From contig OZ024743.1 of NCBI GenBank assembly GCA_964016885.1, forward strand, positions 287,618,001-287,682,000: a stretch of DNA of 64,000 nt, read 5' to 3'. The notes under the pieces were generated by a model. It was not told the origin of the DNA, ran no database searches, and saw nothing but the letters and a program-made list of their open reading frames with translations. Made by a program: the position numbers and the translations under genes. Origin of the DNA: Eledone cirrhosa (Eukaryota). This document shows positions 101-63,019 of the stretch, piece after piece. Each line of letters opens with the position of its first letter. Positions within the stretch are counted from its first letter, which is position 1.

Positions 101-183
101 ATGTATGTATGTATGTATGTATGTATGTATGTATGTATGTATGTATGTATGTATGTATGTATGTATGTATGTATGTATGTATG

Positions 184-921
184 TTATCTCTTTCTCTTAA
201 TTTCGAGTATATTTTTTTGACCGGCTACCTTCCTGGTGGCAAGGTTGTAAAAGAAAAGAAATTGACATCCCTTGAATCGCAAGAATGTTTTGAAAATTTT
301 GAAGGTGCCAGCTATCCCAGCCATTTGTAGACTATGAATTAGGGAGCTGCGTTCTTTGTCCGCAAATCCAAGTTCAGTCATACTTTGGTCCAAGCGGGTT
401 AGTATATAACCCGTAGCTCCAATAATGATGGGTATGAAGCTAAAGGTGTATCTTGGATACTGGATTTGTAAACTCCTCATCAATGGTCCGTAGATGTCCT
501 CCTTCTCCTGTATTTTTCTGACAACGTTTACATCAAGTGGGCAGCTGATCTCCACAACAGAACACGTTTTCAATGTGGGGTCCCAAACAACAATATCAGG
601 CCGGTTGTGCTTTAATTTGGTGGCAGTTTTTATTTTCAGGTTCCACCAGTATTCCTTAGTGCCATCTGTCTCAATATATTCTTCCTCGTTTGTTAATTTT
701 GTTTTCCGAAGTGCGTTCCAGATGGTTCTAGCTATCCCATCGTGTCTCATGGGGAGGTAGTAGCGAGATGACATTATTTCGCAGCTGGCAACAATGTGGC
801 TTACATCCTCGATCTTTGTTTTACATAGCCTACATTTATTGTCAGCTGATGGCCCTCCCCTTTTGTGCAGCAGATATTTGGTAGGGAGTTCTTGTTCCTG
901 TATTGCATAGAGATATCCCTC
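184..921 (-). mobile_element. 5'-truncated R4/Dong-like (R2-group) non-LTR retrotransposon: CCHC finger plus restriction-like endonuclease
   Basis: Minus frame reads [10 protein letters not shown]...CRLCKTKIEDVSHIVASC...RHD...NRPDIVVWD...VVEISCP, a PD-(D/E)xK-type RLE; (ATGT)n on both sides. Confidence 0.85.
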
Positions 922-1224
922 ATGTATGTATGTGTGTATGTATGTATGTATGTATGTATGTATGTATGTATGTATGTATGTATGTATGTATGTATGTATG
1001 TATGTATGTATGTGATGGCGGCGGTGATGGCGGTGGTGGTGGTGGTGGTGGTGGCAGTTGATGTTGTTGTTGTGTTCTGTGCGTGTGTGTGTGTGTTTTG
1101 TTATTTTGAGTTTTTTTGTTTGTTTGTGGTTTTTTTTTTCTTTTTATCTTTTGATGCCGCTGTTGTTGTTGTAAATGTCACCATCACCAGCGACCGGGCC
1201 TTAAGAAAACAACTTTAATAATAA

Positions 1225-1371
1225 TTTTTCTGCTTTTGGCACGGATCCAGCGACTGGTCCAGCGCATCACTGGTACTCTCTTTTGTTGACTCCGTAGGGA
1301 TGAAAGGCAAGGTTGACCTCGGCGGGATTTGAGCTCAGAGCGTGGAGAGCCATAACTCTATGCTGTAAAGC
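1225..1371 (-). mobile_element. tRNA-derived SINE fragment (octopus OK/Meta-core-like)
   Basis: Reverse complement of B-box GCTCAAATCCCGCCGAGG and core GCCTTTCATCC...GTACCAG shared with 55463-55677. Confidence 0.75.
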
Positions 1372-1702
1372 AATTATAATAATACTGGACTGTAATACGA
1401 ACGGCTTCAACTATACAAACTCTTGAAAGTCAACAGTTGACATAATCTTGTAATCTTGTATCAGTAATGACGGTAATATATATATATATATATATATATA
1501 TATATATATATATATATATATATATATATATGTGTGTGTGTGTGTGTGTGTGTGTAAGTGAGTAGCGTGTGTGTGTTTGTTTGTATGTATGAGTGTTGCT
1601 GTGTGCGCGCGTATGTATGCGTGTGTGTGCGCGCATATGTATGCGCGTGTGTGTATGTCGTACGTATAAGTGTCAATAAGTGAGTTTTTTTTTTTTTTTT
1701 TT

Positions 1703-61022: not shown

Positions 61023-61088
61023 ATGTATGTATGTATGTATGTATGTATGTATGTATGTATGTATGTATGTATGTATGTATATATGTAT

Positions 61089-62100
61089 GTCAGGTCACCA
61101 GTTGGTGCTACTGGTAACATGTATCCCAGTACAACCTGTCTCATGGCCGGGTCGTTGGCGGCTAAACTGGCAACCCCACCAAGGTTTCTTGGTGAGGAGG
61201 GTGACTTTGGACATCCTGCAGGACTAAAAACAAAACCTGTCAAAGGGCAAAGGAGCTCTTAAGAGTCAATGGCCATCCAAAATCACCGGGAGAGATGACC
61301 TCTTAGCCTTTGTCAAGGCAGAATTCTAGGAGAAGGAAAACTGATATAACACCTGCAACCCTGATGGCATCTAATGATGTTGACTTGTTCTTCTTTTTGG
61401 TAAGTATAATCTTGGTTAAGAGAGTGGGACTGGCTTTGTGCAGTGCCTTTGCTCACTATAAAAGCTTCACGGCACAGGGATTGCTTTATATCTGGAGATC
61501 TCTCTGCACTTGTCGTCACATGGTACCATGGGCCCAGCACTATGTATCAATAATTGTCACAAGTGTAGTGTTTGTACCAGAGTTTTCAAGTCGCTGGCTG
61601 GACTAAAAAGTCACACTCGTTCAGCGCATCGGTGGGGTTCTCCTGTAGCAGTGAATAAAATGTATTTTCCTTCTGCGGAGGAATGGTGTTACGGAGGTAA
61701 GTTGGCTGAAGTGTGAGCCAATCAAAACCTTCGGCGCACTAATTCGACTGTCCAGAACTACGTCACCAGTGTGAGCGGAGGTGACCAAGAGAGTCATTAG
61801 TCTACACGCACCTCTCTTATCGACAAGACCAGGCTACACTCATCGCTGCTAACAACATCTCCATCTTGCAATGAAGCGGACCAAGCTACATCCTACACAT
61901 GTAGATACGACCTGTACCTAATGTATCCGTTCAACATGTACGACTAATAAATAGAGTTACAACATCGATAATGGATTTAGTCAATGTTCTAAATGCCTTC
62001 TGATCTCTTTTATGTATATTAAGAATTGACCCTAAAACCCGTTATACTCCTACATGGATATAAAATAGTGGCCGTACTCGAAAACGAGTTGGCAGCCACC
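61089..62100 (+). mobile_element. Second full-length RTE-derived SINE, interrupted by a solo LTR
   Basis: Same 5' start GTCAGGTCACC; CSVCTRVFKSLAGLKSHTRSAH; resumes at 62047. Confidence 0.9.
61644..62046. mobile_element. Probable solo LTR (~403 bp), Gypsy-like
   Basis: Interrupts the SINE; starts TGTAGC, ends GTTATA; 4-bp TSD CTCC; CCAAT and AATAAA inside. Confidence 0.7.
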
Positions 62101-62154
62101 ATGTATGTATGTATGTATGTATGTATGTATGTATGTATGTATGTATGTATGTAT

Positions 62155-62457
62155 GTTCTTTTTGGTAAATATTATCTTGGTTAAGAGAGTGGGACTGGCT
62201 TTGTGCAGTGCCTTTGCTCACTATAAAAGCTTCATGGCACAGGCATTGCTTTATATCTGGAGATCTCTCTGCACTTGTTGTCACATGGTACCATGGGCCC
62301 AGCACTATGTGTCAATAATTGTCACAGGTGTAGTGTTTGTACCAGAGTTTTCAAGTCGCTGGCTGGACTAAAGTCACATTCATTCAGCGCATCGGTAGGA
62401 GTTCTCCTACATGGATATAAAGTAGTGGCCGTACTCGAAAACGAGTTGGCAGCCACC
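62155..62457 (+). mobile_element. 5'-truncated RTE-derived SINE
   Basis: Third head-to-tail copy between (ATGT)n tracts. Confidence 0.88.
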
Positions 62458-63019
62458 ATGTATGTATGTATGTATGTATGTATGTATGTATGTATGTATG
62501 TATGTATGTATGTATGTATAAATATGCATGTATGTATGTATGTATGTATGTATGTATGTATGTATGTATGTGTGTGTTCTCGTGTGTGCTATGTGTATGT
62601 GTGTGTGTGAGTGTGTATGTGTGTGTATGTGTGTGTTTTTGTCTGTGTGTGTGTATGTGCGTGTGCGTGTATGTGGTTGTGTCCTTTTCATAACTCCTTA
62701 TTTGAAAGCATAAAGATGAAACTTCATCTTGGAGTGTAATATGAAACTGGACATTATAAAATATTTCGAATTCTATTGAATCATATTTTAAGTTTTGAAA
62801 TATCAATTTTCTTGCTTTTCATAGGTGTGGACAGATTTCAAACGTATATTTATAGGCTGACTCTGAAGAAGTGATGCTAGAGCTGTGAAATCTTGCTTGC
62901 ATTAATTTCAACTTTTCTTATTAATAACTGCATTATTTCTTTCCAGGGACTATGTTGAAGAATAAACCTAATTTGGTTATTTCATGAGAGTGTCTTGATC
63001 AGCCTATAAACATTTCAGT

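Follow-up and report, generated by a model that had tools for sequence, protein, structure and literature searches.

Unrelated retrotransposon families use overlapping sets of microsatellite sites in the octopod Eledone cirrhosa

Introduction

Do retrotransposons that lie packed against simple repeats select those repeats, and are the repeats divided among the families? The question is raised by a 64,000-nucleotide stretch of the Eledone cirrhosa genome (GenBank assembly GCA_964016885.1, contig OZ024743.1, positions 287,618,001 to 287,682,000, forward strand; hereafter the window), whose content is retrotransposons without long terminal repeats (non-LTR), Penelope-like elements (PLEs) and microsatellites. 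From position 1 to 9131, an RTE derivative is followed by an R4/Dong-like element on the minus strand (R4a), an RTE-type long interspersed nuclear element (LINE) termed RTE1, a second R4/Dong-like element on the minus strand (R4b), another RTE derivative, and an older RTE-type LINE (RTE2). The spacers are (ATGT)n, and the stack closes in (AT)n, where a PLE starts. From 28919 to 41470, four Tx1-type copies stand head to tail with ATCT spacers between them, and two further copies lie within 56611-57910 (Table 1). The initial annotation proposed that four lineages partition microsatellite niches, that no family clearly uses another's repeat, and that some lineages make targets that others use.

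Materials and methods

The 3.0-Gb genome was searched with each family, and the best 30 of 40 scored matches to the window copy were taken (sampled genomic loci are labeled L###); 59 loci were extended where the copy ran off the locus or a longer flank was needed. Under the strict rule, the 50 nt before each 5' junction were classed, and window copies, duplicated loci and unplaceable junctions were dropped (of 30 loci each, 2 for R4a, 5 for R4b, 3 for the RTE derivative, 7 for RTE1, 2 for RTE2, and 2 for TxD, the Tx1-D family). The background array share per strand was 0.23% for ACAT, 0.23% for ATGT, 0.07% for ATCT, and 7.3% for AT. An abundant repeat of ~190 bp served as a control, and 60 evenly spaced 10-kb genome samples (600 kb) formed a check set. 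Target duplications were scored only at sites with unique letters; automated calls in pure arrays are meaningless and were ignored. The clade labels Tx1, R4/Dong, and RTE rest on domain order and not on a tree with named references.

Results and discussion

Site selection was judged from the sequence directly upstream of each element. Under the strict rule, ACAT was found at 26 of 28 R4a junctions (by a looser 20-nt rule, at 30/30 loci) and at 14 of 25 R4b junctions, with AC/GT at one more. The RTE derivative adjoined ATGT at 16 of 27 junctions and AT at 9, the remaining 2 having no array, and RTE1 adjoined ATGT at 13 of 23 and AT at 3, with no array at 7. ATCT was found at 12 of 28 TxD junctions, and the 28 junctions of the older RTE2 included ATGT (3), AT (6), and other arrays (2). 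The rare tetranucleotides were enriched at the family junctions by 200-fold or more over background, and the control repeat had no array in 67 of 69 cases. The 5' truncation points differed from copy to copy yet adjoined the family repeat, so this upstream repeat does not belong to the element. This comparison of genome-wide 5' flanks was the check proposed in the initial annotation, and it found the family repeats enriched, neither mere tails nor a local artefact. It was concluded that the association is real and genome-wide, beyond chance, and that the repeats are preferred, overlapping sites rather than separate niches.

The evenly spaced samples gave a consistent picture. Eight young copies of the RTE derivative were found there, 3 in ATGT and 5 in AT, and this use of ATGT exceeds its availability (p=0.014). 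Both R4 copies touched ACAT, and 4 of 5 ATCT arrays adjoined Tx1; in this small sample ATCT arrays are thus nearly saturated, and Tx1 may lengthen its own targets. Relative to the same samples, the window holds ~8-fold more ACAT and ~15-fold more AGAT array per kb and is an atypical local hotspot of tetranucleotide arrays.

The orientation of the elements within the repeats was fixed, the sense strand reading ACAT for R4, ATGT for RTE, and ATCT for Tx1. In the 102 R4 flanks, every R4-RTE neighbor pair (29/29) stood on opposite strands, as did all pairs counted from the RTE side (10/10), and like neighbors lay on the same strand (R4-R4, 19/20; RTE-RTE, 7/7). The claim that no family uses another's repeat was contradicted by these data, since R4 and RTE occupy the same arrays. 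Likewise, (AT)n is common to RTE and PLEs, and RTE2 ends in an (AT)n tract (8978) that also adjoins a PLE.

Whether RTE supplies the arrays that R4 uses was judged from the side of insertion. RTE stood tail-to-tail with R4 at 14 of 54 R4 3' flanks and faced R4 on its 5' side at 15 of 48 (Fisher p=0.66). The arrays 5' of the RTE derivative were longer than its tails (median of 50 nt versus 26 nt), and no such element lay within 120 bp of 11 of the 20 ACAT arrays that the evenly spaced samples contained. The notion that some lineages make the targets of others therefore drew no support, and RTE-made targets for R4 were rejected on the side-of-insertion test. Joint use of arrays already present accounts better for these data; facilitation would persist in a weak form, in that each insertion would leave a target on both sides.

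The R4/Dong-like elements contain a reverse transcriptase (RT) followed by a CCHC finger and a PD-(D/E)xK restriction-like endonuclease, with no APE; these motifs were read in the sequence, as the Pfam matches covered only RT and zf-RVT, and the nearest solved RT was that of R2. R4a and R4b share ~54% protein identity and the (ACAT)n target. As the initial annotation had stated, all three window copies carry the repeat at both ends, (ACAT)n on the sense strand. Insertion into (TAA)n, which defines Dong proper, was not found, and these elements work like Dong and are not filed as Dong.

RTE1 has the single APE-RT open reading frame (ORF) of RTE elements; the window copy has one frameshift, and intact homologues have the same domain order. 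The RTE label is taken from domain order. The 5' region of RTE1 at 1012-1178 is inverted relative to two other copies, as in twin priming, and because this segment is the element's own 5' region, RTE1 adjoins (ATGT)n at 1013. The RTE1 5' untranslated region (UTR) has captured (AT)n, (GT)n, and (ATT)n, and it also contains one copy of a short repeat that is abundant. Non-specific insertion, as expected of RTE, was not observed: ATGT or AT stood at 25 of 27 5' junctions of the derivative and 16 of 23 of RTE1. Of the short RTE-derived copies, four lie wholly inside the window, and each begins and terminates in (ATGT)n, in agreement with the initial annotation, which had called them RTE short interspersed nuclear elements (SINEs). 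The SINE label was rejected, as no match to polymerase III A or B boxes was found and the ends (the 5' 400 bp and the last 33 bp) match RTE LINEs; by their sequence these copies are a bipartite non-autonomous LINE. At the 3' end, 6 of 30 sampled copies of the RTE derivative pass directly into ATATAT. Two element proteins of the window had their nearest named relatives in Argonauta hians, and no named Tx1, Dong/R4, or RTE reference was among the protein-search matches listed.

The Tx1-type elements were assigned from an ORF2 that encodes an APE endonuclease, an RT, and a zinc finger at the C-terminus, with an ORF1 upstream, whose knuckle gave only a weak match, and from a target preference accompanied by target-site duplication. 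In comparison with PDB entries, the RT was nearer to L1 than to R2-type proteins (best match, L1 ORF2p, E=2e-55; R2, 2e-22). The annotated placement of the seven window copies held. At the 5' junction, (ATCT)n is present in copies A, C, D, F, and G, although on the 3' side A, D, and G have runs of only 2-3 units; copy B has (ATCT)5 on its 3' side and is preceded by the short ATCT run of copy A and (TTCT)3; and copy E lies at a TATATCTA site with a 19-nt duplication that has one mismatch. The TxD element ends in AAATC, overlapping its motif. Its 3' flanks were ATCT at 19 of 30 loci and of AATAT type at 11, of which two were true (AT)n arrays. At unique sites, target duplications of 12-20 nt were visible and the ATCT tail was absent; Tx1 target duplications at non-repeat sites were found at L207, L209, L211, L218, and L221. 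In reads of another sample, 710 run past the TxD end into ATCT, possibly from few loci. A full-length copy with ATCT flanks (L406:442-3960, minus strand) contains an intact 1171-aa ORF2, from which it is likely to have been active recently. Several Tx1 copies lie in minisatellites whose units contain TATAT/TATCT words (L007, L008, L208-L210, and window 51200-53120).

A motif scan of all loci revealed a sister Tx1-type family with (ATT)n 3' of its end and ~62% protein identity to TxD. Among the first 20 other matches of the 40 listed, 19 run straight into ATTATT and one does so after two ATC units; at 20 loci the 5' end was off the 1.5-kb locus (16) or an internal deletion (4), so no 5' junction was reached. 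The (ATT)n tract in the 5' UTR of RTE1 is a pre-existing target, in which Tx1-type copies lie at L388 and L396; the L388 copy belongs to a second Tx1-type family in this tract. The initial annotation had regarded (CA)n, (GA)n, and trinucleotide tracts as unused; not all trinucleotide tracts are so.

As annotated, (AT)n stands on one side or both of each of the four window PLE blocks that could be matched to genome families. In the three families (87 loci), 76 copies had their 3' end inside the locus, and in 68 of these it lay at (AT)n; at the roughly placed 5' boundaries, (AT)n was found at 9/28, 7/21, and 9/21 loci not running off, window copies included. The assignment rests on RT and GIY-YIG, the latter a weak Pfam match in family C with motifs read in the translations. 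Inverted pieces and six hammerhead-like cores were found by pattern; an Rfam scan of the window returned no hammerhead and only spurious miRNA matches on repeats. A 97%-identical inverted duplicate of the flank (8701-9036 versus 12702-13039; RTE2 3' end and (AT)n) stands at the far end of the family A element, and the piece at 12702-13039 looks as if target DNA had been copied inverted during PLE insertion.

We consider it probable that these unrelated families enter overlapping sets of microsatellites by target-primed reverse transcription in which nicking is biased toward a motif and a strand, the likeliest of the explanations weighed here. The endonuclease of each family would nick a short motif already present, on one of its strands, and prime reverse transcription at that point. 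R4 would act on the ATGT strand, and RTE on the ACAT strand; R4 and RTE likely stand opposite ways in the same repeat because each cuts its own strand. The nick would likely fall at a TpA step, which occurs in AT, ATGT, ATCT, and ATT and not in the unused (CA)n and (GA)n, and site choice may also depend in part on how the 3' end of the RNA pairs with the strand that was nicked. Every insertion would turn a single array into two that are still usable, and stacks such as those at 1-9131 and 28919-41470 would be explained by this. An ATGT unit is missing from the RTE copies in (AT)n, and an ATCT tail from the TxD copies at AATAT; the flank therefore follows the site and not the element. Several observations weigh against this explanation. 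(TAG)n and (AAAT)n have TpA steps and yet are unused. The signal of the older RTE2 is weak (no array at 17 of 28 5' junctions), and arrays were also lacking at 16 of 28 TxD junctions and at 10 of 25 R4b junctions, some of them later insertions. The best-30 loci represent young copies rather than a random draw, and the neighbor pairs, among which window copies are counted, lack full independence. Comparison with raw reads of another sample revealed no empty allele at the Tx1 cluster, and the length of the R4 arrays before insertion is thus inferred only. Finally, the roles of endonuclease specificity and RNA-DNA pairing are not separated by these data.

Site choice could instead be made mainly by pairing of a read-through RNA repeat tail with breaks or weak T|A nicks, and the 5' arrays could be partly made by slippage during or after insertion. 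Such pairing has been proposed for RTE elements (PMC6007223). It accounts for the strand polarity, the element ends overlap the motifs, as in TxD, and ACAT on both sides of all sampled R4a copies would suit arrays made by the RT. We nevertheless hold this somewhat unlikely as the main cause: no family repeat was found 3' of RTE copies in (AT)n or of TxD at AATAT sites, and the microhomology of RTE is 1-2 nt (PMC6007223) against 5' array medians of 50-76 nt here. It is partly compatible with strand-specific nicking. That four specialists partition the microsatellites, with RTE tails creating the arrays that R4 then uses, appears improbable. Creation of microsatellites by lepidopteran RTEs (PMC2887409), the tail-to-tail R4-RTE pairs, and the adjacency of Tx1 to most evenly sampled ATCT arrays speak for it, and in the 5' tallies of sampled copies Tx1 was never found in ACAT/ATGT nor R4 or RTE in ATCT, so that this part of the proposed partition stood. 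Against it, RTE is equally frequent on the R4 5' side, the derivative's 5' arrays exceed its tails, and most evenly sampled ACAT arrays are free of elements. Strict partition was rejected, and exclusivity is largely refuted, on the R4-RTE and RTE-PLE overlaps, the TxD copies at AATAT, and the (ATT)n Tx1 family. Passive accumulation in a microsatellite-rich genome, or contigs mis-joined at repeats, is very improbable. In the evenly spaced samples, (AT)n arrays come about once per 2 kb, making PLE or RTE copies next to (AT)n the least surprising case, and the window is itself a hotspot; the control repeat, the enrichment of rare tetranucleotides, the fixed orientation, and the target duplications led to the rejection of chance adjacency and already refute this account for the tetranucleotides, and the reads continuing from TxD into ATCT, possibly at few loci, argue against an artefact.

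Microsatellite targeting by Tx1, Dong, and PLEs is already known, with ACAY for Waldo, AC for Mino, TC for Kibi, TTC for Koshi, and TAA for Dong (PMC3812793). Crocodilian Tx1 families target TTCC/TTTC (PMC4494074). Like Kibi, Koshi, and these families, the Tx1 elements here are APE-RT elements with a microsatellite preference that differs by family; the motifs differ, being ATCT (relaxed to AATAT) and, in the sister family, ATT. Dong of silkworm, mosquito, and the snail B. glabrata also enters microsatellites (PMC3812793, PMC2887409), and the R4-like elements resemble it, with one ORF that bears RT and, at its C-terminus, motifs of a restriction-like endonuclease; the Dong target is TAA, whereas here two families share (ACAT)n. 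Naiad/Neptune PLEs show a (TA)n bias, and Naiads occur in Octopus (PMC8557442). They resemble the PLEs here in (AT)n at the insertion ends and in tandem and inverted structures; the three families here have a C-terminal GIY-YIG and offer nothing new in kind.

Waldo is an APE element of the R1 clade. Its target in mosquito and earwig, ACAY (PMC3812793), is nearly the same word as ACAT, and the restriction-like endonuclease of the ACAT user here would make this a case of convergence. For RTE, sites appear not to be sequence-specific (PMC2887409), and among APE clades site-specific LINEs are placed only in Tx1 and R1 (PMC6007223). RTE/Bov-B and bipartite RTEs (PMC2887409, PMC6007223, PMC13295347, PMC5786205) share with the elements here the APE-RT ORF, a 3' microsatellite, a T|A junction, and a derivative formed by deletion between 5' and 3' parts. 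Reported features include T|A junctions of Bov-B RTE (PMC13295347), TpA cleavage for L1 (PMC6007223), bipartite non-autonomous RTEs (PMC5786205), and an octopus RTE with a microsatellite 3' UTR (PMC9115989). In the published RTEs the repeat lies inside the duplication, whereas here long arrays also stand 5' in fixed strand. Octopus vulgaris has young, abundant Dong-R4 families, young Tx1, RTE, and PLE, and hotspots of transposable elements (PMC13282606), for which the available part states no target motifs; that of PMC8869645 held nothing further on microsatellite targeting by these families. Literature searches brought up no account of insertion targeted to ACAT, ATCT, or ATT, nor of stranded target choice by RTE, although subscription journals, supplements, and Repbase/Dfam notes may hold such.

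The pattern is suggestive as to mechanism, and two of its parts are worth following, RTE targeting and the way in which R4 and RTE share one repeat by strand; the story of a partitioned community is overstated. ACAT, ATCT, and ATT extend the list of target words of clades already known to be targeted, and the data point to an RTE family with strong stranded site choice, for which the cited papers leave no room. We suggest, tentatively and with more doubt than confidence, that an RTE lineage is truly target-specific outside Tx1 and R1, on the other strand of the R4/Dong repeat, and that together with Tx1 sisters switching between ATCT and ATT it builds self-renewing multi-kilobase stacks across this octopod genome. 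If so, these would be natural pairs for finding what sets endonuclease specificity, and young intact copies such as the L406 ORF2, with sister families of different targets, make the question of endonuclease versus RNA pairing testable. In practice, such insertion would account for the repetitive flanks expected of tetranucleotide markers in cephalopods, and it gives a sequence-level cause for local element hotspots.

Other features of the window

Table 1. Elements of the window and sampled loci of the sister Tx1-type family
Feature	Positions	Strand	Flanks and remarks
Bipartite RTE derivative, 3' end, cut by window edge	1..98	+	(ATGT)21 next at 100-184
R4/Dong-like family a, 5'-truncated	185..921	-	CCHC finger and PD-(D/E)xK-type endonuclease motifs; (ACAT)n both sides
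RTE1, APE-RT-C2H2, one frameshift	1014..5960	+	5' piece 1012-1178 inverted; (ATGT)n both sides
R4/Dong-like family b, 5'-truncated	6025..6480	-	(ACAT)n both sides
Bipartite RTE derivative, 5'-truncated	6578..6980	+	(ATGT)n both sides
RTE2, older, internal deletion	7141..8977	+	5' degenerate (ATGT)n, 3' (AT)n
Penelope-like family A, inverted 5' piece and inverted duplicate of flank	9133..13124	+	Main block 9133-12703, (AT)n both ends
Penelope-like family B, 3' part	17296..18170	+	(AT)n both sides
Penelope-like family C, GIY-YIG	18750..20777	+	5' junction (AT)n; internal (CA)n is part of own 3' UTR
Tx1-type copy A, 5'-truncated	29016..29436	+	5' (ATCT)n
Tx1-type copy B, truncated within ORF1	29460..33708	+	3' (ATCT)5
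Tx1-type copy C, full length, frameshifted	33730..39413	+	(ATCT)n both sides
Tx1-type copy D, 5'-truncated	39482..41459	+	5' (ATCT)17
Penelope-like family B piece, inverted arrangement, hammerhead-like cores	42926..43329	-	(AT)n both sides
Tx1-type copy E, inside minisatellite	51348..52455	-	19-nt target duplication beginning TATATCTA
Tx1-type copy F	56697..57142	+	(ATCT)n both sides
Tx1-type copy G	57257..57895	+	5' (ATCT)n
R4/Dong-like family b, 5'-truncated	59909..60326	-	(ACAT)n both sides
Bipartite RTE derivative, full length 606 bp	60418..61023	+	(ATGT)n both sides
Bipartite RTE derivative, full length	61091..62101	+	Split by 400-bp insertion, 61645-62046
Bipartite RTE derivative, 5'-truncated	62157..62458	+	(ATGT)n both sides
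(ATT)n-ending Tx1-type family	L396:1-1092, L127, L132, L264, L420-L439

The insertion that splits one RTE derivative starts with TG and holds a TG...CA stretch and a polyadenylation-like signal; it is possibly a solo LTR, and no second copy was found among the sampled loci. Hairpin or tandem-plus-inverted pieces stand beside or near (AT)n at 13233-14239, 16633-17225, 26452-26899, 41700-41920, 43352-43540, and 44693-44888; some have hammerhead-like cores, and they are probably further PLE ends. Repeats with CTAG ends, often close to TA runs, were found at 22237-22280, 45190-46150, 50615-50765, and 53129-53280, and we take these to resemble helitron-type elements. The ~190-bp repeat beginning ATAATTGT lies at 49595-49783, with copies at 43860-44134, 55457-55685, and 58218-58415; it is very abundant (105 matches in 600 kb), has no microsatellite link, and with its ends interrupts some R4b copies.

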